Source of the DNA: Centroscyllium fabricii
Taxonomy: Eukaryota
Assembly: GCA_051313645.2 (NCBI GenBank)
Contig: JBNRSN020000029.1
Coordinates: 21,514,001 to 21,578,000, forward strand
Direction of reading: 5' to 3'
Length of the DNA: 64,000 nucleotides
Of the stretch, positions 1-62,426 are shown piece by piece (positions within the stretch are counted from its first letter, which is position 1; every line of letters begins with the position of its first letter). Position numbers and translations under genes: made by a program. Below the pieces are notes generated by a model. The model had not been told where the DNA came from, searched no databases, and worked only from the letters and a program-made list of their open reading frames with translations.

Positions 1-908
1 TTGTCGAAAGACAAGGCACGGGGCAAGGAGCTGTAGGAAGGAAATGTGTGGCTCAAGCCACGTAGTTTGTCACTTGAAGAAACAAGGACAGAGATTGTAA
101 AACGTGTGTGCCTCCACGGATAATGTTTGAAAGTGTCCTTATACATTTTCAAGTAAAGATTGTTCAGCCTAAACTAATTTCGGCTGAAAATTATTTGTCA
201 ACAATTATATATTTGATTGGATAAATCATATATATGACTTTAATTGCAACTTTGTTCGAGTTTAATTTTATATTAAATTGATTGCAGCAGATGTTATAAA
301 TACACATGATACGTTATATAACAAATAAATGCACAGGAGTTAAATAAACATAATGGGCAGTTGTGAAGATTTACAAATTTACAGTTGCACGATGATGCGA
401 TGTTTTTAAAATATTCTTTAAATTTTCTCGTAGCATGTCTGAAGCTACTGATGCGAAAGCTGACTGCAACCTCACGGTTTAGTTTTCAAAGTGCATAGCT
501 AAAAGCAATCAACCCCATACTTCTATTCTCTCAAGTAATTAAGCTTGAACATTTACAAATCAAAAAATTGATTTGTTGCAATGCTGAATGTAAAGACAAC
601 ATAATCCGTTAGAGTTTTTTTAAATTTCAGAACTCAAGGTGACTGAGATTATATTTATGCTAATACAGAAATTGCTTTCGGAAGATATCGGAGGAATATC
701 ATCAAATCTCACAGTATGGTGACAAGGTTGAGCTAGGATTAGCCTCACAAAGGGGTGGTATTAACCAGTTTAGCTCCGTATCTCAGGTTCCAAGAGAGAG
801 TGCTCGAGGCGGAGGCATGAGTGTTACCTCCGAATGTAACTGCGAGCAGTCCTGTCTCTGCTTCAGAACAACAAAGCCTGAATAACATTTGTTTGCAAAA
901 AACAATCT
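1..908. repeat. Near-identical direct repeat, copy 1 (runs off the window start); copy 2 at 2634-3542
   Basis: ttgtcgaaagacaaggcacg...gtttgcaaaa(a/c)acaatct recurs at 2634-3542. The differences I found are a 2-bp indel (aaagtgcatag vs aaagtgtgcatag) and one substitution near the end. Confidence 0.95.
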
Positions 909-1279
909 CTGTCATTATGGTAATATGAACAAACGAACAATGGCGGCCAGGTGAAGACCAATTGGTCTATTTCGACTTTCCTACAGGATTGGGTTACCTC
1001 GTGTATCAACATATATACACTCTCCACCAGAAAAAAACAATGTGATATAATGGTACAGGGGAAACAAAACAGAGGAAAAAGCAGGGCAATTCGGGAGAAA
1101 TAATCTTGGAAATTCCTCTCTGACCCATCTAGGTGATCAAAATTAGTTCCGTTGATCGCTCTCACCCTAAATTACCTGAAGTTCCTACCTTTTTAAGAGG
1201 TAACATCCGCCCCAACTAGAAAAAGTTCCAATGCATATGAGTCCTTATTCTCATTCACAACTGGACAAAGTGAGTTCAT

Positions 1280-1680
1280 GGGCGGCATGGTGGCACAGTG
1301 GTTAGCACTGTTGTCTCACAACACTGGAGACCCGGGTTCAAATCCACCCTCGGGTACTATCTGTGTGGAGTTTGCACATTCTCCCCGTGTCTGCGTGGGT
1401 TTCCTCCGGGTGCTCCGGTTTCCTCCCACAGTCCAAAGATGTACGGGATAGGTTGATTGGCCAGGGTAAATTGACACTTAGTGTTAGGGTGATTGAATAT
1501 GTGGAGTTACGGGGATAGGGTGGGATATGTGTCGGCTCGAGAGGGATATGGGAAGAGGGCAGGGCCGGGGTACTGGGTTTCGATGATCAGCCATGATCTC
1601 ATTGAATGGCGGAGCATACTCGAAGGGCCGAATGGCCTACTCCTGCTTCTAGTTTTTATGTTTCTATGTTTCTATGTCTA
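1280..1680 (+). mobile_element. Full-length tRNA-derived V-SINE (HE1-like) with CR1-type 3' tail
   Basis: tRNA-like head (GGTGGCACAGTGG, GGGTTCAAATCC) and V-core tgtgtggagtttgcacattctccccgtgtctgcgtgggtttcctccgggtgctccggtttcctccc. Tail gatcagccatgatctcattgaatggcggagc...(tttctatg)n matches the CR1 3' UTR at 22749-22843. Confidence 0.9.
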
Positions 1681-1949
1681 TAATAATATTATTAAGCTGT
1701 AAAAATATACAACAGCTTATCAGCTGACTCGTTGGTTTCAGTGTTAATTTGCTAATATTGAGAATTATATTCATGTATAGTCTCCATCACCACAATAAAT
1801 GACAAGTAAAGCTTCGGTGTAAAATTGAGGTAACTGAATTACTTTAAATTGTATCATTGCAGCCCGGTAACCATGATTGTCCCAACTCGGCACCGCGGAC
1901 ATCGGATGGGCCTCCCGTTGTGCACAGCGCCAGACTTGACTTCCCATTA

Positions 1950-2167
1950 CCTCAGGCCGCCCACAGCCTCTCTCAATCCTTTCACTCTCTTGCTGCCGCC
2001 TCCTCCCGTAAAACCCTCCTTAAAACTTACCAAATCGATGAAGATTTTCGAATATTCCCTGAATATTTTCTTCAGTGGCTCCTGGTTATTATTTTTCTTT
2101 AAGCCTCTGTTAAGCGTCTTGCATGTTTTATTTTCTTTAAAGACGCTATATAAAGGCAAGTTGTTGG
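1950..2167 (+). mobile_element. Degenerate L2-type LINE/SINE 3' end
   Basis: Ends in aagcgtcttg...taaagacgctatataaaggcaagttgttg, resembling the L2-clade terminus (GCGCTATATAAATGCAAG-(TTG)n). Confidence 0.5.
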
Positions 2168-2633
2168 TCTCCTGAGACACATTCCATTTTCTCCAATCCG
2201 GTGCAGTATTGCATACGGATGAGCAAAGAATAACATCTATTATCGATTAGTGCTGCAGCTGAACGCCGTTCTTTATTTGTGCGGTGTGATGAAGTGAAAT
2301 ATCAACACAGAAATTTTGATGCAGTGATTAGTTAAACGCTGGGATTTTGACTTCATGGAAATGAAAATGGAGCACGCTTTATATTTGGTTGTTAACTCCA
2401 TCTCATCCTGTTTGCAAAACATTTCTAGATGTCAGGGCATTCAACTGCTGCGAGTATTCGGCTTTTAATTCATTATTCGATTCAACGAGGAACCTGAAAT
2501 CAAAGCATCCAAATATTTTTTGAGTTGTTTTAATGACTTTCTGCACTTTTCCTGCTATTCTAAAAGTGAGGTAATCAATCCGGCAGCTTAACACCAAACT
2601 CCATTCGTTGCTGTGAGTGTGGCATTGGTGAAT

Positions 2634-3542
2634 TTGTCGAAAGACAAGGCACGGGGCAAGGAGCTGTAGGAAGGAAATGTGTGGCTCAAGCCACGTAGTT
2701 TGTCACTTGAAGAAACAAGGACAGAGATTGTAAAACGTGTGTGCCTCCACGGATAATGTTTGAAAGTGTCCTTATACATTTTCAAGTAAAGATTGTTCAG
2801 CCTAAACTAATTTCGGCTGAAAATTATTTGTCAACAATTATATATTTGATTGGATAAATCATATATATGACTTTAATTGCAACTTTGTTCGAGTTTAATT
2901 TTATATTAAATTGATTGCAGCAGATGTTATAAATACACATGATACGTTATATAACAAATAAATGCACAGGAGTTAAATAAACATAATGGGCAGTTGTGAA
3001 GATTTACAAATTTACAGTTGCACGATGATGCGATGTTTTTAAAATATTCTTTAAATTTTCTCGTAGCATGTCTGAAGCTACTGATGCGAAAGCTGACTGC
3101 AACCTCACGGTTTAGTTTTCAAAGTGTGCATAGCTAAAAGCAATCAACCCCATACTTCTATTCTCTCAAGTAATTAAGCTTGAACATTTACAAATCAAAA
3201 AATTGATTTGTTGCAATGCTGAATGTAAAGACAACATAATCCGTTAGAGTTTTTTAAATTTCAGAACTCAAGGTGACTGAGATTATATTTATGCTAATAC
3301 AGAAATTGCTTTCGGAAGATATCGGAGGAATATCATCAAATCTCACAGTATGGTGACAAGGTTGAGCTAGGATTAGCCTCACAAAGGGGTGGTATTAACC
3401 AGTTTAGCTCCGTATCTCAGGTTCCAAGAGAGAGTGCTCGAGGCGGAGGCATGAGTGTTACCTCCGAATGTAACTGCGAGCAGTCCTGTCTCTGCTTCAG
3501 AACAACAAAGCCTGAATAACATTTGTTTGCAAAACACAATCT
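2634..3542. repeat. Near-identical direct repeat, copy 2 of 1-908
   Basis: Direct comparison with 1-908; offset 2633-2635. Confidence 0.95.
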
Positions 3543-6345: not shown

Positions 6346-7271
6346 TATTATTGTAACATGTGGTGCTAGAGTTTAAAGGTGACATTGGATCAGCTGTGCA
6401 TTAGCAACTTTTCCAGATATTCATCGCTATTGACGACAATGGAAGGAATACCGAGAAACATGGGAGGATGTAATTACTACATGACAAGATTGCACGGAGT
6501 GTTTCCATTACAAATGTAGTCATCAACGTTTATATCAGAACTAGAGAAGGAAGAACACAATGCAGGTCTTTGCATTCGGATTCAATTATATCTTTATGCC
6601 CTGAAAAAATAATCCCTCTCCTCGAAACCGAATACATCTGAAGTACAACTGTGGTATAAAAAATCATCTTTCTCTTTATGGCAAGAGGGATGGTGCCATT
6701 TATGCCAACATTTTAATGCCCCAACAGATAGACAGTTCCACTGACTGAAATAGAAATGAATGAAGGGCAGAAGGTAAACGAGGCCCACTGTGCAATCACA
6801 CGCATATTGCTCTAAGAACATAGTCCAATTTCTATCCATATATTTTGTCTCTCTGGATGTGAAAATGGACATGGGCAGAAAAACAAAACATGCAGAATCG
6901 CATTTGTAGCCCGGTGTCTAACCCTCCCAAGGAACTGGATGCCAGGCGACCGATGTGCTAGCACCTGTTTTGCGGCCTCGCCGCTCTCCAATTCCACCCG
7001 ATGTGCAGTGCCGTGGGAGACAAACAACTCTCTCCTTCAGATTTTATCAATCGATATCCTTGGACTTTTCACACGAAGATTTATGGCAGCTGGTTGTGCA
7101 GTGATTAACAGAAAAGTTCAAAGTATTGAAGATTTTGGATGAGATAAATCAGGGGAAATATATTTGCACTTGTTGGCCAGCGGATTCTTAAAGGGCCAAA
7201 ATGTATTATCATCATCAAAGGAATGAAGTGAGAGGTCTAGAGATTATTTGTATTTTGCGAATCAGTGTAAT

Positions 7272-7858
7272 TGTCATAGATGGAATTCTCCTTTAAGGAT
7301 TACATCTTTGAATTATATGTCTGTTTCTCTGTTTTGTTCATTATTACCTCGTTTTCTTGTAAATATAGCTAATTGTAGCTCGTTTATCATTTGCATGTAT
7401 TGATAGGAATGAGCTAATCAATCTAATTGGCTTGAGCCATATATAAGCTTTGGGTTGGCAACAGGATATTGCCGGATCGTTAGTTTCTGTTACTTGATAT
7501 CTGTGTTCGGTTGCTACTCTCTGTTCCTGTTCGTATTGGATTTCTACCTGTTACAGAAGAGTTGGATTTACTGCTGAACTCAGTGCTGGGATTCATCCCT
7601 TCAGTGAAGCGGATTACTTGGAGTAGATCGGTTTCTAGTTTTGGACTTATTTCTGTTTATCACCATGAACTCTGGTTTGGACTTGTTAATTACATTTACC
7701 AGTACTCTGGATTATAGAATTGTTTATTCTCTGTTGAACACTGCAGTTAATAACTGTATATATATATATATATTTGAGGACTCAGAAATAAAGGATAATT
7801 TATTTCTAAAGACGGACTTCCGGTGTTCTGCATTTGGGCCCTACCACAAACCCTTACA
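7272..7858 (+). repeat. 5' LTR (587 bp)
   Basis: TGTCATAGAT...CCCTTACA. By my count it differs from the 3' LTR by 7 substitutions and 1 indel. Contains TATATAA (7440-7446) and AATAAA (~7789). Confidence 0.95.
7440..7481 (+). promoter_or_regulatory. LTR TATA box and predicted transcript 5' end / self-primer (GCCGGATCGTT, 7471-7481)
   Basis: TATATAA at 7440; 31 nt downstream begins an 11-mer exactly complementary to the PBS-position sequence at 7860-7870. Confidence 0.75.
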
Positions 7859-7859
7859 G

Positions 7860-7870
7860 AACGATCCGGC
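7860..7870 (+). promoter_or_regulatory. Self-priming-type primer binding site AACGATCCGGC
   Basis: Lies 1 nt after the 5' LTR, does not start with TGG (no tRNA CCA complement), and is the perfect reverse complement of 7471-7481. Confidence 0.75.
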
Positions 7871-7875
7871 CAGAA

Positions 7876-9522
7876 ATGGACCCAGCAGAGACACTGAAGC
7901 GTCTAGAACACCTCGAGGGCGCCCTATTTCACCAGGGGCAGACCTTGATGAATATTTGCACTCAGATGGAGCAGTTAACCGTCGCCTGGAACCTGCGGGT
8001 AGCGTCGGATTCGGCAGGGGTCCCGTTACCACCACCCCCGGCTCCAGAAGGGGGGCTGGTACCCAGGCCTCAACTACTAGCTCCCACACTCGAAACCCGA
8101 GTCGGGGAACCGGAACGGTATGCCGGTGAACCCGAGCAGTGTGATCCTTTTCTCACAAGCTGTTCCATACTGTTTTCTTTGCAGCCCCACACCTTTGCCA
8201 ATGGGAAGGCAAAGGTAGCGTTTGTAATAAATCACCTCACAGGAAGAGCCCGGCTTTGGGGAACCGCCGAGTGGGAGAGAGATACTCAGGCTTGCTCTTC
8301 TTTCGAGGCGTTCGCCACCGAATTAAGAAGGGTGTTTGGCAGGGTTAATTTCGGCTCTGAAGCAGCTCGGGGACTCATGAATCTGAGCCAGGGAAATCAG
8401 ACAGTGGCTGATTACGCAATTGATTTTCGAATCAGGGCTCGTCGGAGTGATTGGAATCCGGCTGCATTACGTGAGGTTTTTCTTCATGGTCTTTCTGAAT
8501 ATATCAAGGATGAACTGGTCTCCTACGATCTTCCCTCCACCTTGGATGAACTAATTTATCTTGCCACCAGGATCGATCTTCGTATCCAGGCGCGTCGACG
8601 TGAGAGACGACCGGGAACGTCTGGTCGACATCCTCCGAGTTGGACTCCAGAGGCTTTCATGACACCCAGAGAGACTGCGATAGCAGGGTCAGAGCCAGTG
8701 GGCCCCGAACCAATGCAATGGGGTCGCACTCAAGGGAGATTCGTGGCGCCCAGAGATACTGTGACAGCAGGGGCGGAACCAGGGGGTCCAGAGCCTATGC
8801 AGTTGGGTCGCACCAGTCTTCGGTTGGCGAGGCATAAGGGACCGCACTCACCAGTCAATGGAGTCGTAATGGTGAGCCAAACTCCTGATGGACTCTCTCC
8901 CAATCCACGACCCTTGTGTCAAGCCAAACTTCTTCTCCCCAGGGGATCCCAGACTCTCGTCATCTGTATTGACTCTGGAGCGGACATCAATATCATCGAT
9001 GAGGATCTGGTCACGCAACTGGAGATTGACCGGGAGCCACTGCCACAGCCGGTTCCTGTCAACGTCTTAGACGGCCATCTCCTTGGAACGGTGACACATC
9101 AGACCTCACCTGTTCTGATGCTTCTGTCTGGGGATCATCAGGAGAGCATTCAGTTCCATATCTTGAGATCACCTCAGATTCCGTTAATTCTGGGACACAC
9201 TTGGCTTCGCCGCCACAACCCTCACATTGATTGGAACACGGGAGCTATTTCGGGCTGGAGCCTCTCCTGTCACCAGGTCTGTCTGAAACGGGCTCAGACT
9301 TCGTTGCTTCGCTCGGCAGACCGATACCCGCCTGCTGCCAACCGTAGTCATTCTGGGTCTCCTGAAAATCATGTTGGGCAGAAGGGGTGGCTTCCACCTC
9401 CTCGTCAGTTCAACGGTGGGTTGGTCTACACTGTTCGTCGCCTACTTCGTTCCCGTCATAATTGGATAGGACTTCAGTACCTGGTGGACTGGGAGGGGTA
9501 TGGTCCAGAGGAGAGGTCCTGA
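7876..9522 (+). CDS. Gag-aspartic protease-(partial) chromodomain fusion polyprotein, 548 aa from ATG 7876; the frame continues past the TGA to 9837
   Basis: Gag motifs [18 protein letters not shown] and [15 protein letters not shown], then PEPMQ(W/L)GRT twice. Protease [11 protein letters not shown]...PLILGHTWL. Chromodomain YTVRRLL...[31 protein letters not shown], with TGA at the conserved Trp. The acidic tail ORF 9628-9837 is in the same frame. Confidence 0.85.
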
Positions 9523-9835
9523 GTTCCTGCTCACTACATAAAGGATCTGCAACTCATTGACGACTTTCACTGGAGCCATCCCGACCAGCCAAGTAAGAGG
9601 ACTGCGACTCATGAGGAGTCTGGGCAAGTGATCGGTTCCATACAGATCCAGGAGAGCCTGACCGAGGAGGAGGAATCTGCTGAGGAGGAGGAATCTGCTG
9701 ATGAGGATGATTCTTTTCAGTCTGATTATGAGATGGACATAGAGGAGGGCTTCGAGGACTGTTGGTTCTCCCCCGCACCCCTCCACCCACCCGATCCGGC
9801 ATTTGAGGTTTTGGGACATCAGGAGTCGCCCCCTT

Positions 9836-9852
9836 GAGGGGGGGGGGGGGGG
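9836..9852 (+). promoter_or_regulatory. Polypurine tract
   Basis: GA followed by a G run, ending 3 nt before the TG of the 3' LTR at 9856. Confidence 0.85.
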
Positions 9853-9855
9853 TTC

Positions 9856-10441
9856 TGTCATAGATGGAATTCTCCTTTAAGGATTACATCTTTGAATTCT
9901 ATGTCTGTTTCTCTGTTTTGTTCATTATTACCTCGTTTTCTTGTAAATACAGCTAATTGTAGCTCGTTTATCATTTGCATTTATTGATAGGAATGAGCTA
10001 ATCAATCTAATTGGCTTGCGCCATATATAAGCTTTGGGTTGGCAACAGGATATTGCCGGATTGTTAGTTTCTGTTACTTGATATCTGTGTTCGGTTGCTA
10101 CTCCCTGTTCCTGTTCGTATTGGATTTCTACCTGTTACAGAAGAGTTGGATTTACTGCTGAACTCAGTGCTGGGATTCATCCCTTCGGTGAAGCGGATTA
10201 CTTGGAGTAGATCGGTTTCTAGTTTTGGACTTATTTCTGTTTATCACCTGAACTCTGGTTTGGACTTGTTAATTACATTTACCAGTACTCTGGATTATAG
10301 AATTGTTTATTCTCTGTTGAACACTGCAGTTAATAACTGTATATATATATATATATTTGAGGACTCAGAAATAAAGGATAATTTATTTCTAAAGACGGAC
10401 TTCCGGTGTTCTGCATTTGGGCCCTACCACAAACCCTTACA
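9856..10441 (+). repeat. 3' LTR (586 bp)
   Basis: Near-identical to 7272-7858 and followed by the TSD GTAAT. Confidence 0.95.
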
Positions 10442-13114
10442 GTAATCCCCTTCGTCTTTGAACAGTAGTAGAGTAACACTACACTGGAGTTTGATTTCTG
10501 CTTTATTCTAAAACAGACTTATGAAGCATTAAGGGAACAAGCAATAAGCAGGACCAACTTAAAAGGTTTTAGAGTAGTTGCCTCGAGTTGCAAAAAATCC
10601 TTATATGCTTGCAATTTATGGTCTAAAATTGCACTGTAATGAAAGATCTTATGCGAAAATTTTACTTGAATGAAATGATCAGCGAAGTGGCATAATCCAC
10701 CCGCTGTACTCTCTAAACACCATCTGAGCAATTTCTTCGGATTTTTAAGCTGCGGAAATGAAACTCCACAAAGTTTCGAGAACTTGAATAACTCTCTGCA
10801 AAAATTCAAATGGTGTTGTACAGCCATATACCTGAACAAATCTGAAGTGAGTGGTTTCCTCAAAAATAATGCCTCTCAAACACTGAACATACACGACAAT
10901 AGGGTCCTAAGAAAAGCTGATACACGATTTCTGTGCGTGAACCTGATTTTAACCTCATGTGTACCATTACAGGCTTGATGATGCTTTTATCAAGCAGATC
11001 CTTAGGCAAATGCAATGCTTATTTAACCCACAGCTAACATTTACATCACTCTAAATCTGTAGTGGAAGGTATGTAAAGATGACAATCTATTCCCACATTG
11101 TCCATCTCTCTGTCTTAATCGGAATGCAGCCTTTGGTTTTTGAACGGCAGGAGGCTAGATCAGGCCAATCCAGACCTCTTCAGACGTGCACAGATGCTTA
11201 GTTATATTAGAAGATGGAGTCCAGGTTGATTTGTCCCTCAGTAACCCAAGGTTGCTGCTGCGTATTATATCATCCCAACAGCTGTTCAGGTTATTTGTGA
11301 GATCCCGAGCTGTAAAAGATGACGTTCTATAAACGACACCCACTGCCTACAAATAATTGTCCTCGAAGCATTTTGAGATATTCATGTGTATCATGAAGTC
11401 ACAGAATTTGCTGATTTTTTTTCGATCTCTGTTGCGAGAAGTTTGCTTTTTTCGATGTACAACTGATTTGAGCGCTCTGTAGTGGGAATCCCTCGTGCGA
11501 TGCTGCTGTGACTTCAACAAGCTATCTCAGCAGCTAATCACTTTGCAGAGTTATCGCAGAAAGGGAAGCAGGGAAAGAGAAGCTGGTTTGATCTGGAATT
11601 TAAAAAAAAAATTTGCAAGTAGAAAAACAAAGTTTGTGATAAGGCAGGGACAAATTGTCACGGAAAAATATCAAATAATAACATGGCAGAATGCACTGCA
11701 ACCAGCGAACGAATGACCCCTGTTGTTCATTAGATTACCCGTTTTCCGATTTATGTCACGAGATTTGCATGGCAACTTGCGTTCAGTGGGACATCGAAAC
11801 AGTATAGTGCTGTCTAGTGGGCATCAGGGACTTGTGTGAACAGGGAATGTCACTGTGCACCACATTAACAAATCAGATGGAATAATTATTATTGAGCAGC
11901 GCAGAGGCTGAAGCGAATTATGCTGGGACGTGTGTTACTGTGCAGGATGATGAGGATCCAACGTGAGCTTCTGGCCGTTGGCAACAGCTGCCCAAAATGG
12001 AACGTTTCGCTCCTAGTCATTCCACCGTGAGAGGCACTGCTGTTCTTCGTGAATCCTGGGTCACGGTTGCAAATTACAGTAGTGACGCTCACGGTCAGGA
12101 AGCCAGAGTACCGGGTTCCAGGAGTCACAATGCACTGCTTACACACACCCAGGGGCGAGTAGAGTAAAATACATAAGAGCCCAGAAATTAGCCTTGGATC
12201 CTTCGTACGAGTGCGGGGCTCCCAGTTACACTTACCCTGTACTTTTGCCATTTTGAAATTTTAAGCTGCGAACTCCCGAGTTCGACAGCTGCTTTAGGCT
12301 CTGTTCGAGCTGCTGGTGCAACTGAACGGCGCAATTAATTGGAAATCTCGCACGAGACCACATGATCGGCAGGGCGCCAATCAGTGGAAGCAATCCTCCA
12401 TTCAAAACTTACACGGAGAAATCTGTGTACATTTTGAATTGGAAGAGCTTCAGAAACACATCTAAACACAAAAATAAAATGTAAATAACACCACATATTT
12501 TAACAATAGTCTAACTAACTTAAATTACCTATTTTAAAGAAAAAAAAAATATTAGAATTTTTGTTTAGAGTTTTTAACTGGCCTAAAAGAATACTTACCT
12601 ATCTTTAAAGTTAAAAAAAAATTAAAACATGCAAAAACAATACTTAAAATCTATAAAATAAAGACTTACCTGCTAAGAACGGGTGCTTACATCTGGTATT
12701 TTCAAGTGTAAAATCTTGCATACTTACCCGGATAAAAAAGTCAAAAAATAAAACGGAAGTTCACTGCGCACCTCCTGGTATGCAGGCGAGTGCGATCCTC
12801 CTCGCAGCAGCTCTCCCCCTTCCCCATGGTCCGCCTTCGGAATTGCAGGGAGCAGCTGGAAACGGCTGTTCCATGCGATTTGGAGCTCTGGTGCGCTAAC
12901 AACCGGCTCCAAAATCTCCTGCGAGGATCGGAAATATTGGCCTATTATTTACAACAGTTGTCGGAAAATGGGCAAATTGGCTCAGGGCTGGTTCAACTAA
13001 CATGGGGTCGCTATATTGCACGTTGTGGCTGTTATAAAGACGAAAAGCACACGATAGTAACTTTCACAACCTGACTCCAAAAGAGTTGAGAATCTACATA
13101 CACTTCCCACAGCA

Positions 13115-17125: not shown

Positions 17126-18462
17126 AGCGCAGACCAAGCGGAAGCCAGCCAGACCACTGGATAGGAGCTCGGGCAATCGGGCCGAAAACCGGAGGGAAAA
17201 GAAGCAAGTGAGCTTTAACCAGGCTTTTGTTAAAGCCACAGGGGGAGAAGAGGACAGCGGCAGCCGGTAAGCAGCTGCAAGTCTCGCGGGCCTTTCTTTT
17301 GAGGGGGCGGGACACAGCAGTATAAAAGGGGAGCTGAGGACTGCACTTTAAAGCGCAGACCAAGCGGAAGCCAGACAGACCACCGGAGAGGAGCTCGGGC
17401 AATCGGGCCGAAAACCGGAGGGAAAAGAAGCAAGTGAGCTTTAACTAGGCTTTTGTTAAAGCCACAGGGGGAGAAGAGGACAGCGGCAGCCGGTAAGCAG
17501 CTGCAAGTCTCGCGGGCCTTTCTTTTCAGGGGGCGGGACACAGCAGTATAAAAGGGGAGCTGAGGACTGCACTTTAAAGCGCAGACCAAGCGGAAGCCAG
17601 CCAGACCACCGGAGAGGAGCTCGGGCAATCGGGCCGTAAACCGGAGGGAAAAGAAGCAAGTGAGCTTTAACCAGGCTTTTGTTAAAGCCACAGGGGGAGA
17701 AGAGGACAGCGGCAGCCGGTAAGTAGCTGCAAGTCTCGCGGGCCTTTTTTTTCAGGGGGTGGGTCACAGCAGTATAAAAGGGGAGCTGAGGACTGCACTT
17801 TAAAGCGCAGACCAAGCGGAAGCCAGCCAGACCACCGGCGAGGAGCTCGGGCAATCGGGCCGTAAACCGGAGGGAAAAGAAGCAAGTGAGCTTTAACCAG
17901 GCTTTTGTTAAAGCCACAGGGGGAGAAGAGGAGAGCGGCAGCCGGTAAGTAGCTGCAAGTCACGCGGGCCTTTATTTTCAGGGGGCGGGACACAGCAGTA
18001 TAAAAGGGGAGCTGAGGACTGCACTTTAAAGCGCAGACCAAGCGGAAGCCAGCCAGACCACCGGAGAGGAGCTCGGGCAATTGGGCCGAAAACCGGAGGG
18101 AAAAGAAGCAAGTGAGCTTTAACCAAACTTTTGTTAAAGCCACAGGGGGAGAAGAGGACAGCGGCAGCCGGTAAGTAGCTGCAAGTCTCGCGGGCCTTTC
18201 TCTTCAGGGGGCGGGACACAGCAGTATAAAAGCGGAGCTGAGGACTGCACTTTAAAGCGCAGACCAAGCGGAAGCCAGCCAGACCACCGGAGAGGAGCTC
18301 GGGCAATCGGGCCGAAAACCGGAGGGAAAAGAAGCAAGTGAGCTTTAACCAGGCTTTTGTTAAAGCCACAGGGGGAGCAGAGGACAGTGGCAGCCGGTAA
18401 GTAGCTGCAAGTCTCGCGGGCCTTTCTTTTCAGGGGGCGGGACACAGCAGTGTAAAAGGGGA
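17126..18462 (+). repeat. Tandem array of a 226-bp monomer, ~5.9 copies
   Basis: Units start at 17126, 17352, 17578, 17804, 18030 and 18256. Each has GGGG(C/T)GGG and TATAAAAG (first TATA at 17321; last copy TGTAAAAG). Confidence 0.95.
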
Positions 18463-18852
18463 ACTGTGTGCTAAACCCGAAACACTACGTGGTAGTGTTT
18501 CCCACCCTTCCATCCTCCTCTAACCTTAGGGGGTTAGAGTGATTTTAAAAAGGTATGTTCAAATTATTTTTATTTTCAGGAGCCCAACCTAGGTGGAAAG
18601 GGTTCCAGGACAGAGAAAGCCTTCACAACAGGAGGCAAGGGACTGGTGAGTACTTTCCTCAAACTTTTCTAAAAACTACTAAAAGTAGTGGGATTCAGTA
18701 AATCTAAAAAGGAAATGAAGGGTACTTATAGATCGGTCTAAAGTAAGCTTCAGGAAGTAAAAGTTAATAAATAAGCCAAAGTAGCTTCAGGAAGTAAAAG
18801 TTAAGAAATAAGCTAAAACTAGTAAATTAAAAGGTAATATAAGGGTTAAGTC

Positions 18853-57156: not shown

Positions 57157-58313
57157 ATTATCTTTTAATGGATCAGGAAGGCCGGTTTGCACCAAGAAAG
57201 ACAGTTGGAAGCTACCCAAAAATGTGTGTGGATGCAGAGGGTTAAGCTCCACTTTTGTTTTTTTTTGCATCGAGACGGGAATTCCATTCTGTTGAAGAGA
57301 ACAGTAATGCAAATTCGATGGATTCACTGCGGCCGCCAGTCGGTAAAACTTACTTTTGGTCCGGCATACATTCGAGGTTCTTTTTCTTTTGAATTAACTG
57401 AGAATAGGTTAGCGACGAGTAATTATTAAATATGTATCTTTTCAGAATTACTAGGATATTCCACGTCATTGGGAGAAACATCGAGAGAGATCTGAGCGAA
57501 CAGAACACTTTCCAAGTATCTCACACCAAGAACTGTTGACTGATCATCCTCTCAGTGTAAGGAGAGATAGTAATTTAATTCCACTTTTTTGCAGCTAATT
57601 TTTTGGCAATCGTCATTCTCTCTGGTGGAAAGTGCGGTCTCTCCAAATGCATCACCCGCTACCTGGTGGCTATGACAGCGGCTGACCTAATGGTCCTGAT
57701 ATTTGAAGTAATTCTGCATCAGATTAACGATGCGCATTTTCCATATTCATTCCTGAATTATACTCCGATTTGCAGTCTCAATATCGCCTTGCTGTATGTT
57801 TTCATTGATTGCTCTGTCTGGCTAACTGTGGCTTTCACCTTTGATCGATTTGTTGCTATTTGTTACCAAACGTTGCGAACAAAATATTGCACCGATAAAA
57901 CGGCGGCTGTGGTGATAGCAGTCGTGTGTTTCTTAAGTTTTTTAGAAAATGTTCCAATCTACTTTGCATTTGAACCTCGGGAAATAATTAACAAAGCACC
58001 ATGGTTCTGCTATGTAAAATCAAGCTTTTACAACGTGCCCATATGGGTTGCATTTTTGTGGTTGGAAACCATTTTAACCCCATTTGCGCCATTTGCATTG
58101 ATCGTGCAGCTCAATGCCCTGATCATCAGGCACATTGTACGAGCCAATAGAATGAGGAGCGGTCTCCGAGGCAACAAAAATGTTCAGAGTCACACTGATC
58201 CAGAGATGGTGAAGTGAAGGAAATCAATCATTTTACTGCTCGCTATATCTGGCAATTTTATACTATTATAGATGGTAAATTTGATAGTTTACATATATGT
58301 GCAATTTACAGAT

Positions 58314-58557
58314 TGTGGAGCTGCAGGTATCCAAAAACCACACAGAGTCAGAGCTAAGGAAAAACACCTTTACTCAACAGTTATAAACATGGAAGAGGCA
58401 GAACCACGAGGTACAAACATATTTAAACAGTCCCGCCGTTGGTGACGTCATCACGTCCGCCGACGTGATGACGTAATCGCACTTCGCGGATGAGCGGGCT
58501 GCGCTCCGCGGAACCCCGTTGGCGGATTCGATCTCCCAGCGGGTGTGCCGCTACACA
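58314..58557 (-). repeat. 3' LTR (~242-244 bp)
   Basis: TGTGGAGC...GCTACACA imperfect terminal inverted repeat; 4 substitutions and 1 indel versus 62521-62746 by my count. Confidence 0.9.
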
Positions 58558-58598
58558 GCTCCCCCCAGAATCCGTCCGGGAGAAATAGATTAACGTGT

Positions 58599-61500
58599 CT
58601 ATGTGTGCCGTTGGGGCGGTCGGATGATGCGGCTGGACCGTGTTGCTAGCTGTTGCTGGTTCTGCGTTGGAGTGTGGGCGGGTTTTGGTGCGGGAGGGCG
58701 ACCGCGTTGTGGTGGTTGTGCGGGGACCGTAGTCTCGCCCGCTGTCACGTGTGCCGGCTTGAGCCGGTCTATTGTTACTGTTTCAGTCCTTTTGCCCATT
58801 TGTAATTCAAAAGTCTTGTTTCCCGCCCGAAGCACCCTATAAGGGCCATCGTAAGGTGGCTGTAGGGGGGCTCGGTGCCCGTCTCGTTGGATGAACACCC
58901 ATTTGGCGTTTTTGATGTCGTCTGGCACCCGAGCTGCCGGCTCTCCAAGCCGGGACACTGGTAATGGCTGAAAAGCTCGTGCCGGGTTTGCCCAGTCCTT
59001 TAAATACTGGTCTGCTGACCAGGGGGTGTTGGCCTCAGCCAAAAATTCACCCGGTACCGTTAAAGCCTGGCCGTAGACGAGCTCTGCTGCTGAGGCATTG
59101 AGGTCCTCTTTAACTGCCGACCGCAGCCCGAGGAGAACCCATGGAAGGCGATCGGTCCATGAAGCATCTTTCATTGTGGCCCACAGCGATGCCTTCATTG
59201 AGCGGTGGAACCGTTCGCATAGGCCGTTCGCCTGTGGATGGTACGCGGTGGTCCTGTGTAGTGTCACCCCAAGGTCGCGGGCGATGGCCGCCCATAATGT
59301 CGACGTGAACTGGGGACCTCTGTCGGAGGTGATGTCCGTGGGCACGCCGAATCGGGCGACCCATGTGGCGATGAACGCCCTGGCCAGGTCCGTGGTGTTT
59401 GTGGCAGTAAGGGGCACTGCTTCAGGCCAGCGAGTGTTGCGGTCGACCATGGTCAGTAGGTGCGTGTGTCCGCGGGATGGTGGTAGTGGCCCAACGAGGT
59501 CGATATGGACGTGGTCAAAGAGTCTGGCCGGTACCTTAAAATTTTCCAGCGGTGCCCTAATGTGCTTGTGCACTTTGGAGCGCTGGCAGGCTATGCAGGA
59601 GGTGGCCCAGGCGCGGACGTCTTTGCGCAGGCCGCGCCATACAAACCGGGCCGATATAAGTTTAGTGGACGCGCGGACGCCGGGGTGGGACAGGTCGTGG
59701 AGGGTCGTAAAGATTCGTTCCCTCCAAGCGGGGGGCACGACGGGCCTGGGTTGCGATAACGAAATGTCGCAGCAAACGACGGTGGCAGCGGGGCCGTGCG
59801 GGATCTTGGCCAAGCGTAGGCCGGGAAGTTTGGTGGCGGCGTTGAGTAGGTCGGGGTCGGTCAGCTGCTCCGCGGCCAGCTGGGCATAATCAACTGCCAT
59901 TTGGGCGGCGTTGATAGTGGGGCGTGAAAGGCAGTCAGCGACCACGTTGTCGCGGCCGGAAATATGCTGAATGTCGGTTGTAAATTCCGACACGGCCGTG
60001 ATTTGGCGCTGCTGCCTGGCCGACCAGGGTTCAGCGGCCTTAGCCATCGCAAACGTGAGTGGCTTGTGGTCGGTGAAGACTGTAAAGTGTCGGCCCTCCA
60101 GGAGGAAACGAAAGTGTCGCACCGCCAGATGGAGAGCTAGTAGCTCCCTATCGAAGGCGCTGTATTTTACCTCTGGGGGCCGGAGTTGCCAGCTGAAAAA
60201 GGCCAGGGGTTGCCATGCGTTGCCAGTGCACTGCTCAAAAACGGCCCCGACGGCGTAGTCGGAGGCGTCGGTGGTGAGGGCTACTCTGGCGTTGGGCCTA
60301 GGGTGGGCTAGGAGGGTGGCGTTTGCCAGGGCGATTTTGGTTGCGGTAAATGCGGTGGCGGCTTCGGCCGTCCACTCGACTGAAGCCTTGTTGGACTGCC
60401 CGCGGGTGGCCTGGTATAAGGGGGCCATGAGAGCGGCTGCTCCCGGGATGAAGCGATTATAAAAATTGACCATGCCTAAAAATTCCTGCAGCCCCTTAAT
60501 AGAGTGCGGGCGGGGAAATTCCTGTACCGCCTGTGCCTTAGAGGGTAGGGGTATGGCCCCTGCTTGGGAAATACGGTGGCCGAGGAAGTCGATAGTCTCT
60601 AGGCCAAATTTACACTTGATGGGGCTAAGGATAAGGCCGTGTTCGGTGAGGCGCTGGAACAGGGTCCTGAGGTACAGGAGGTGTTCCTGAGGGGAGGAGC
60701 TGGCCACGAGGATGTCATCTAAATAAACAAAGATGAACATCAAGTCCCGTAGGACTGAGTCCATGAGGCGCTGGAAGGCCTGGGCCGCATTTTTAAGGCC
60801 GAAGGGCATCCTCATGAATTCGAAGAGCCCGAAGGGGGTAATCACGGCCGTTTTGGGAATGTCCGCCGAGTGTACGGGCACCTGGTGGTAGCCACGCACC
60901 AGGTCGATCTTAGAAAATATCGTACGCCCTGCCAATCTGGCTGAAAAATCCTGGATGTGGGGTACGGGGTACCTATCCGGGGTGGTGGCGTTGTTGAGGC
61001 GGCGATAGTCGCCGCAGGGGCGCCAACCTCCGTCGGGCTTGGGGGCTATGTGGAGCGGGGAGGACCAGGGGCTGCTGGAGTGGCGAATTATACCGAGTTG
61101 TTCCATAGTGCGGAACTCGGTGATTGCGATCTCCAGCTTGGCTGGGTCGAGCCTACAGGCGTGTGCATGGACTGGAGGACCTGTGGTAGTTATGTAGTGT
61201 TCCACCCCGTGTTTGGCCTTGCGGGCGGTGAACGTGGGGTTGGTAAGGGCGGGAAATTCCGCCAGGAGCGTGCCGTAGGCATCGCGGTCCTTGGAGCGGC
61301 ATTGGGCTGCCGCGTGGGCTAGGAGTGCGGGCCCTGTGGAACATGGGATGGTCGTCATGGTGTTTAAGTTCACCAAGCGGCGCCGAGTTACATTGACCAG
61401 TAGGCCGTTAGCGCAGAGGAAGTCTGCCCCGAGGAGGGGAGAGGTGACCTGGGCCGTTACAAACTCCCAGGTGAACGTGTGGCTTGCCAGGGTAATGGTA

Positions 61501-62426
61501 AGCTCGCGGGTGCCGTACGTTTTAATGCTAGACCCGTTGGCTGCCGCTAGTGGCGGGCCCCGGGTGCCCCGTTTGGTTTCTGCGGGGGAGGCTGGCACGA
61601 TGCTGTGCTGCGCGCCTGTGTCGCAGAGGAACCTGAGGCCTGTACCGCTGTCTGTGGCGAAGAGCAGTGCTCCTGTGTGGCCTACAGACATGGTGGAGGC
61701 TGAGTTGGGTCTGGGCTTAAAAGTGCATGGCTGTACGCAGCGGTGTGCTTTGTGCTCGAACCGCGTGTGATAGTAGCACCAGCCGGTGCTAGAGGGACGC
61801 GGTTGTCTAGGCGGGTGCGGGGCCTTAGGTTCGGGCGTAAAATTGTGCCTGGGTGGTGAATAGTTGCGCTCTACCGATGCCGAGTTAGGGGCGCACGTGG
61901 TGGAGCTGGTGCGCTGTGCTGCCATCAGCCTGTCGGCTTCCTCGCCGAGTTCATCGTCGCTACGATGGGCTAGGGCCGCCAAAGCCGGTCTGATGGCGCG
62001 GGGCAATTTGAGGAGGAAGACGGTGCGGAATAGGATGGCAGGATTGGGAGTGAGCGCCTGCATCTGACCTAGGAGGTCCGATGGGTCGGTGTCCCCGAGT
62101 TCGGGGAGGTCGAGGAGGTGGCAGTTGCGCTCAAACTGGGAAGGGGTAAACTTTTTAATTAGCGCGGCCTTAAGCGTTTCATACCTGCCTACAGAGGGCA
62201 CGCGCTGGATCGTTGACCACATCCTATCGGCGGTCGTTTGCGGCAGGGCTGTGAACACCAAGTCGTAGCGGTCGTCCCCGTTGATGCCATTTGAACGGCA
62301 GCTGGCTTCTATGCAGCTGAACCAGGCCGCTGGCCGTTGCTCCCAGAACTCGGGCAAAACAAGTCCGCGCCCGGTGCTCCGTCCAGCTCCCTGTGATCGT
62401 GGAGCTTGGTTCCTTGTGTTGGACAT
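58599..62426 (-). CDS. Gag-Pol polyprotein, 1275 aa, uninterrupted
   Basis: Gag [13 protein letters not shown] and CHCC-type motif [18 protein letters not shown]. Protease [16 protein letters not shown]...YLDD. RNase H TDASD. Integrase HDLSH...CIAC, HIDLVG, SDRG, CERFHR, and GPY module YDGPY. Confidence 0.95.

Follow-up and report, generated by a model that had tools for sequence, protein, structure and literature searches.

A non-autonomous sushi-type LTR retrotransposon in a shark genome with a likely Tf1-type self-priming signal

Introduction

The locus described here, part of a 64,000-nucleotide stretch of Centroscyllium fabricii DNA (the window, to which all coordinates refer), raises a simple question. 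How might an LTR retrotransposon begin reverse transcription if it encodes neither reverse transcriptase (RT) nor RNase H, and if its primer-binding site (PBS) does not resemble the complement of a tRNA end? Note that the CCA end of a mature tRNA pairs with a PBS beginning TGG.

A precedent is found in fission yeast. The first 11 bases of Tf1 RNA are described as pairing with the PBS, with RNase H cutting between bases 11 and 12 (PMC7175516). The surrounding RNA is reported to form a 'pretzel' of three duplexes (PMC10085805), and a copy of the PBS to be retained at the 3' end in about half of Tf1 cDNA (PMC11042837). Self-priming is called common to the Tf1/sushi group, vertebrate members included (PMC10085805, PMC6317226). 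The initial annotation of the locus had referred to both the Tf1 mechanism and its proposed extension to this group, and the sources agree, as far as they bear on it (PMC7175516, PMC10085805, PMC6317226).

We conclude that the element is very probably a non-autonomous sushi-type LTR retrotransposon, the RNA of which likely primes itself in the manner of Tf1, using RT and RNase H from Pol-bearing relatives. What is observed directly is the complement, the fixed interval between it and a TATA-like box, covariation across four lineages, the absence of RT, RNase H and the integrase core, and the Pol-bearing relatives themselves.

Results and discussion

The element and its coding capacity

The element spans 3170 nt (about 3.2 kb) of the forward strand, from 7272 to 10441, and is flanked by the target-site duplication GTAAT (Table 1). 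The ends of the 5' LTR (7272-7858) conform to the Sushi LTR end motifs, TGTYANR and CNTNACA, given in Table 3 of PMC3601003, and these motifs are common to the element and the vertebrate Tf1/sushi group. The 5' LTR, ending TTACA at 7858, is followed by G (7859), the PBS (7860-7870), CAGAA, and the Gag ATG at 7876.

Table 1. Features of the element and its flanks.
Feature	Position	Strand	Remarks
Target-site duplication GTAAT, left copy	7267-7271	+	Identical 5-mer at 10442-10446
5' LTR, 587 nt, TGTCATA...CCTTACA	7272-7858	+	
TATA-like box TATATAAG	7440-7447	+	30-32 nt distance to primer kept in four lineages
Predicted self-primer GCCGGATCGTT (predicted first 11 nt of RNA)	7471-7481	+	Start predicted from TATA spacing
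AATAAA, likely polyadenylation signal	7787-7792	+	Sole AATAAA in LTR
U5 arm of predicted U5-leader helix	7821-7841	+	-23.5 kcal/mol; 4/500 shuffles equally good
PBS AACGATCCGGC, without TGG	7860-7870	+	1 nt past LTR
Single 548-aa frame: Gag capsid, aspartic protease, integrase-tail remnant, partial chromodomain	7876-9522	+	
Leader arm of U5-leader helix	7878-7896	+	Overlaps first Gag codons
Integrase-tail remnant (108 nt, 36 codons), between two internal deletions	9291-9398	+	blastn against L128, L131
Same frame past stop, 104 codons	9523-9837	+	Acidic stretch at end
Polypurine tract	9836-9852	+	
3' LTR	9856-10441	+	Against 5' LTR: 7 substitutions and one 1-nt indel, ~98.6%
3' LTR copy of 11-mer, GCCGGATTGTT	10055-10065	+	C>T at 10062
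Target-site duplication GTAAT, right copy	10442-10446	+	

The 548-codon frame, with the protease DSG motif at 8971, ends in this copy at a stop codon (9520-9522) inside the chromodomain. The latter is partial here and passes the Pfam cut-off in a sister copy (L032). Beyond the stop, the 9523-9837 piece, searched separately against Pfam, gave no match. Gag has no CCHC knuckle, a motif also missing in a single-frame Pol-bearing subtype (L131, L132). Compared with Pol-bearing relatives, by blastn with L128 and L131, the element is missing about 2.36 kb containing RT, RNase H and the integrase core; a second deletion, of about 0.2 kb, is in the SH3 region. None of RT, RNase H or integrase core is encoded by the window element. 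Separately, a duplication of about 88 nt, at 8640-8820, repeats a 'PEPMQ' segment between Gag and protease. An Rfam scan of 7200-10500, at E values up to 1, returned no family.

The PBS is complementary to the predicted transcript start

The PBS, AACGATCCGGC, is the exact reverse complement of GCCGGATCGTT at 7471-7481. The duplex is exactly 11 base pairs, since the flanking positions (7470 T and 7871 C; 7482 A and 7859 G) are unpaired. The start of GCCGGATCGTT, at 7471, is 31 nt past the start of TATATAAG at 7440, and it is from this spacing that 7471 is predicted to be the transcript start. Chance is a poor source of such a match. Among 5000 first-order Markov surrogates of the LTR, compared with sequence beginning 0-3 nt after the LTR, none reached a 10-nt match; the longest, 9 nt, was found in four. 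The initial annotation had described a PBS lacking TGG, an 11-nt complement 31 nt from the TATA box, and a C>T change in the 3' LTR copy of the 11-mer. All three descriptions hold: the PBS starts AAC, the complement is exact, and the 3' LTR copy is GCCGGATTGTT, in which the change, at 10062, is at a CpG. This change is private to the window copy, since the four sister 3' LTRs examined (L025-L027, L029) retain C.

Pol-bearing relatives are abundant in the same genome

The window element belongs to a non-autonomous family of many copies that descends from Pol-bearing sushi-type chromoviruses, themselves abundant in the same 7.2 Gb genome. For several of the top DNA matches, a second LTR match follows 2.5-2.6 kb further on, which argues for an amplified family rather than a one-off deletion. 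The genome has at least 144 gag matches (87-100%), and many of these sit in frames of about 650 codons. At least 150 RT matches, with 89-91% identity to fish sushi-type RT, are also present. All 20 Pol-bearing elements fetched share gag with the window element, at 79-88% nucleotide identity, and many of them have LTR pairs that are 98-99.6% identical. The initial annotation had argued that the element has no RNase H of its own and would need a helper in trans. Indeed, both RT and RNase H are missing and candidate helpers are plentiful. Note that a helper must supply RT and integrase in addition to RNase H.

Exact junctions between LTR end and PBS number 7830 for the A-type, carried by Pol-bearing elements, and 504 for the G-type, carried by the window element. 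The G-type PBS is found in none of the 47 readable cases among 60 RT-selected loci (two sets, with at least one locus counted in both). A further 40 G-type loci comprise 23 that are non-coding, 14 Gag-protease mini elements and three with Pol, so that 37 of the 40 have no Pol; in all three that do, the LTR primer is A-type. Enzyme-less elements with an A-type pair exist (e.g. L224, L227, L228, L239). We conclude that a G-type pair implies a non-autonomous element, and that the converse does not hold.

Pol-bearing family A has three layouts (L127, L128, L129, L131, L132, L133, L134). In the first, Gag has the CCHC knuckle and pol is in a different frame; the other two are single long frames, one with the knuckle and one, of 1449 codons, without it. 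The non-coding sister lineages are TRIM-like (L191-L220, L337-L376, e.g. L346), with the same self-complementary PBS and no ATG. Their repeat periods are mostly 0.75-1.4 kb, and R-U5 is long and variable. Some elements are in tandem arrays, where neighbours share one LTR (L014-L016 on C1078, L200-L202, L211-L213, L362, L138). Among the first 100 G-type junctions listed, about 14 are in five such arrays, four of them triples, and in L362 four LTRs are 0-1 nt apart. Tandems made without integrase are described for Tf1 (PMC11042837); unequal crossing-over or assembly error may also account for the arrays seen here.

The mini elements may have a working Gag-protease. Across 36 mini copies, omega is 0.40 for variants present in three or more copies (94 non-synonymous, 93 synonymous) and 0.64 for singletons (137 and 86; Fisher p 0.028). 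For the shared variants, omega is lowest in protease (0.24), followed by Gag (0.37), and is highest in the tail and chromodomain (0.72). The frame is open through 573 codons in 18 of the 36, mostly selected by protein similarity, and in four of 12 among those selected by PBS. These values suggest that Gag-protease is functional in mini elements, although the window copy carries a stop; they are not proof, because selected sequence could be imported from helpers by recombination.

Primer and PBS covary in four lineages

Four matched primer/PBS sets occur in this one genome, each 11-mer matching its own PBS. The sets are GCCGGATCGTT/AACGATCCGGC for lineage G (the window element), GCCAGATCGTT/AACGATCTGGC for lineage A, GCTCAGTCTTG/CAAGACTGAGC for lineage B (8 junctions) and ACTCGGTCTTG/CAAGACCGAGT for lineage C (5 junctions). 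Lineages B and C are two older families, reached via the integrase SH3 domain, for which 20 loci were fetched and 13 junctions were readable. At the lineage level there are 1 + 6 + 2 = 9 double changes, at 7 of the 11 positions, and no breaks. Hence, covariation of the two 11-mers, put forward in the initial annotation as a check on self-priming, is evident within the genome. Note that copy counts are not independent events, because copies are related; the evidence is the handful of lineage-level changes.

Lineages G and A differ at pair 4. All 20 fetched Pol-bearing elements of family A have T at PBS position 8, and all 19 readable primers have A at position 4 (A4). In unbiased, position-ordered samples, loci with an A-type PBS have A4 in 30 of 30 cases, and those with a G-type PBS have G4 in 26 of 30 and A4 in one (three were unreadable). 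Over 130 G and A copies, pair 4 is G-C in 75, A-T in 47, A.C in six and G.T in two, both letters being CpG-type transitions from the G-C state. The remaining ten primer columns are 94-100% conserved in these copies; conservation in columns 16-35 downstream is 36-68%, and 52 distinct 23-nt spacers separate the TATA box from the near-constant 11-mer.

The position of the primer is also constrained. Located from the TATA box alone, by TATA and junction patterns composed after the sequences had been viewed, it matches its own PBS with at most one mismatch in 134 of 139 cases, at offsets 30-32 (151 junctions in total, 139 with a TATA call). Offsets of 24-29 and 33-37 gave no match to the own PBS at any of the 139 junctions.

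In a search for further sushi families, a junction pattern excluding the known PBS letters gave six matches, and the three examined are all family A junctions shorter by one base. A distant RT query for further sushi families retrieved family A again. Finally, a generic RNase H search found other gypsy families, with about 22-40% amino acid identity to sushi-type Pol, except for a protease piece in L065.

Priming probably occurs in cis

Logically, the primer could also be provided in trans, if the 11-mer were cut from a co-packaged helper RNA, or from a second RNA copy, and mixed dimers swapped primers. The element has to meet helper proteins, and there are chimeras: L354 joins a leader of the non-coding type to a Pol body, and L339 is a mini element with LTRs 91% alike and differing primer types. 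Such chimeras suggest that helper and parasite have recombined. Furthermore, four of 70 loci with a G-type PBS are Pol-type with an A-type LTR primer (L217 and three others). Scaled to 504 junctions, this is about 29 copies; a control T>C change at a distance of two bases, in the A-type PBS, is found in 27. Point mutation thus accounts for the mismatched copies, with no sign that parasite primers convert helpers. Nine of the 27 control variants are in one cluster (C822:506.75-507.01 Mb, 260 kb), likely a segmental array. A helper primer on the PBS of the window element would also give an A.C mismatch. With no excess of mismatched copies above the mutation control, we rejected helper-parasite trans priming as a contributor, and we regard primer supply in trans as improbable overall. 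Since enzyme-less lineages mostly keep G-C at pair 4, and Pol-bearing helpers A-U, priming is more readily understood in cis. Note that priming between two RNAs of the same lineage may occur, and is compatible with the sequences.

A host tRNA, or tRNA fragment, is a most improbable primer

Could the LTR match be incidental, with a host tRNA or tRNA fragment as the primer? Priming by tRNA is the default among LTR elements, and tRNA-Lys(TTT) shares a run of 8 nt with the family B primer and one of 6 nt with the window-element primer. However, a PBS that starts AAC, and not TGG, leaves the mature CCA end unable to pair. As regards fragments, all four primers have at least three mismatches in 11 positions when compared with 32 distinct Lys and Cys tRNA genes. 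These were drawn from 63 Rfam-scored candidates, of which 50 loci were examined, giving 62 genes, 32 of them distinct and all either Lys(TTT) or Cys(GCA). A comparison with all host tRNA 3' ends had been proposed initially; for these two types, which are the ones covered, no match with fewer than three mismatches is found. Moreover, four PBSs, each complementary to a stretch of its own LTR that keeps a fixed TATA spacing, are not what tRNA priming predicts. Hence, we give this explanation very little credence. As improbable is a reading in which the pairing is kept for its structure, in packaging, dimerisation or translation control, and something else primes: covariation does demonstrate pairing and neither cleavage nor priming, and the adjoining U5-leader helix spans the first Gag codons and a GU-rich stretch after AATAAA in what may be a regulatory region, but the 3' arm is exactly at the PBS position, 1 nt past the LTR, the length is 11 nt as in Tf1, the 5' arm is at the predicted start, and the element has no other primer site.

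Predicted folding of the leader

Folding of the leader had also been suggested as a check, and the outcome was mixed. The primer:PBS helix is present in both the minimum free energy (MFE) and centroid folds of the window copy; the 436-nt leader as a whole has unremarkable stability (z -0.32). In helpers L128 and L131, the mean pair probability of the primer:PBS helix is 0.90 and 0.82, respectively. Conversely, nested folding of seven of seven B and C copies, and one non-coding copy, gave primer:PBS probabilities of 0.00-0.04. In those folds, a helix between U5 and the leader forms with the PBS inside its loop. Together, the U5-leader and primer:PBS helices make a pseudoknot. Our interpretation is that the near-zero nested probabilities may reflect such a pseudoknot, which the folding program cannot draw.

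The U5-leader duplex is predicted in six of six representatives, at -20.7 to -36.8 kcal/mol, with lineage-specific letters on both arms. Of 500 shuffles, 0-5 were as good in five representatives and 43 in the sixth. One pair is U-A in lineages B and C, and C-G in the ATG-less non-coding copies; coding G and A copies have a C.A mismatch at the same position, the A being within the second Gag codon. Note that the search pattern used in this comparison presupposed part of the motif. A counterpart of the third Tf1 duplex, between post-primer sequence and the end of U5, was no better than shuffles in five of six representatives (77-480 of 500 as good); in the remaining one, 16 of 500 were as good. 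The U5-leader helix (7821-7896) spans the GU-rich stretch and first Gag codons mentioned above and, speculatively, could also influence polyadenylation in the 5' LTR, or translation.

A model for self-priming

By analogy with Tf1, transcription would begin at 7471. The U5-leader helix may hold the PBS in a loop, so that primer:PBS pairing would generate a Tf1-like pseudoknot, the RNA folding its 11-mer onto its own PBS, in cis. As in Tf1, helper RNase H would cut after nucleotide 11, and helper RT would extend the freed 11-mer into U5. Helper integrase would insert the resulting cDNA, a step that the clean TG..CA ends and 5-bp duplication fit.

If the template loses its first 11 nt, the 11-mer of a daughter LTR would derive from the 3' LTR of the parent. 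Hence, the C>T change at 10062 would be harmless to priming of this copy, and would reach daughters as the U-G wobble that an 11-mer with T at 10062 would form with the PBS. Similarly, the PBS could acquire a change made in the primer, and the copying mechanism, in addition to selection, may thus contribute to covariation. In either case, covariation between these sequences would imply that the 11-mer is the primer.

Comparison with known systems

The self-priming signal is a group-wide feature of Tf1/sushi elements and is not peculiar to the window copy. Hence, the mechanism is already known; the element adds a well-supported member to the group and no new mechanism. An 11-nt complement between PBS and predicted RNA 5' end is likewise present in Tf1 and Tf2 of Schizosaccharomyces pombe, together with Tj1, Tosmo1-3 and Tcry1. 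Also shared are a PBS-adjacent helix with LTR sequence, and a chromodomain. The fission-yeast elements are described as having a Gag without the CCHC motif (PMC10085805), like the window element. Unlike the latter, which has no RT, RNase H or integrase core, Tf1 encodes its own RT and RNase H, and its mechanism has been demonstrated experimentally. Likewise, the Tf1 'pretzel' has three duplexes, whereas two, primer:PBS and U5-leader, are supported in the family of the window element.

Vertebrate members of the Tf1/sushi group (sushi-ichi; V-clade chromoviruses in GyDB) share 47-50% identity with the window element in Gag-protease, the alignments covering 99-100% of the query. Among public proteins, the nearest are Gag-Pol-SH3-chromodomain polyproteins, and the named records are from teleost fish, including Takifugu. 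The closest full-length proteins (P0001, P0002) have domains in the order PR-RT-RH-IN, with a C-terminal chromodomain, and relatives of the window element in its own genome carry their RT. The sole match in PDB is the PEG10 capsid (7lga, E 1.3e-7). Placement in the sushi group is thus by similarity to fish records and PEG10, rather than to a named sushi-ichi or Tf1 sequence, and is best read as probable. The window element differs from the vertebrate group in being non-autonomous, in its in-frame Gag-protease-chromodomain fusion, and in having non-coding sister lineages.

Plant TR-GAG, and other non-autonomous elements retaining GAG and PROT, are described as amplified, with Gag and protease kept and enzymes missing (PMC13570524). 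The window family is similarly multi-copy, with Gag and protease and no RT, RNase H or integrase core. Differences are the vertebrate host, the in-frame chromodomain and the self-complementary PBS; the GAG/PROT families of sugar beet are reported to have tRNA-derived PBSs (PMC13570524). The non-coding sisters, which make up 23 of 40 G-type loci, resemble TRIMs in their order of LTR, PBS, short interior, polypurine tract and LTR, and in that some are in tandem arrays. TRIMs are defined by a tRNA-complementary PBS and repeats of 100-250 bp, in the definition given by PMC6934838, whereas in the sister lineages the LTRs are longer and the PBS is self-complementary. The window element itself, at 3170 nt and with a 548-codon frame, is ruled out as a TRIM, which would be non-coding and under about 1 kb.

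A possible parasite series

A wider reading, which we offer tentatively and consider somewhat less probable than its converse, is that one self-priming vertebrate chromovirus has given rise to a graded series of parasites. The series would run from full Pol-bearing elements, through Gag-protease-chromodomain mini elements with a fused protein under selection, to non-coding mini elements. The parasites would have a private primer:PBS pair, differing from that of the helper and hence strictly self-priming in cis. Such a pair could be re-lettered by one LTR mutation in two cycles, as a self-correcting code, free to drift between families. If true, the series would put Tf1-type priming to a natural genetic test in a vertebrate. 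Self-priming by vertebrate sushi elements has been inferred from sequence, and is not known to have been demonstrated experimentally.

More generally, the comparative evidence comes from one genome, in which four primer/PBS sets match, the distance from TATA box to primer is fixed, and a U5-leader helix covaries. With thousands of young copies, the predicted start and cut (RNA ends at +1 and +12) are testable in existing tissue RNA. The difference between helper and parasite at pair 4 is a built-in marker, able to separate priming in cis from priming in trans. Literature searches, of titles and abstract openings and with most subscription papers and Repbase-type annotations outside their reach, found no self-priming non-autonomous vertebrate elements, which is weak evidence of novelty. 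Searches of the same scope found no literature on chromovirus or sushi LTR elements in shark.

Other features of the window

Elsewhere, a segment is directly duplicated within positions 1-3542, at a period of 2633-2634 nt, and the two reported blocks show 100% identity. At 17126-18555, about six 226-nt units stand in tandem; all but the last are 96-98% alike. Between 1568 and 51417, LINE/SINE-like 3' tails are repeated at nine or more sites (families D3, D5 and D8); these probably resemble the HE1/HER1 tails of sharks and rays. Lastly, GC content at 58000-62000 is 56-60%, compared with about 43% in the rest of the window.
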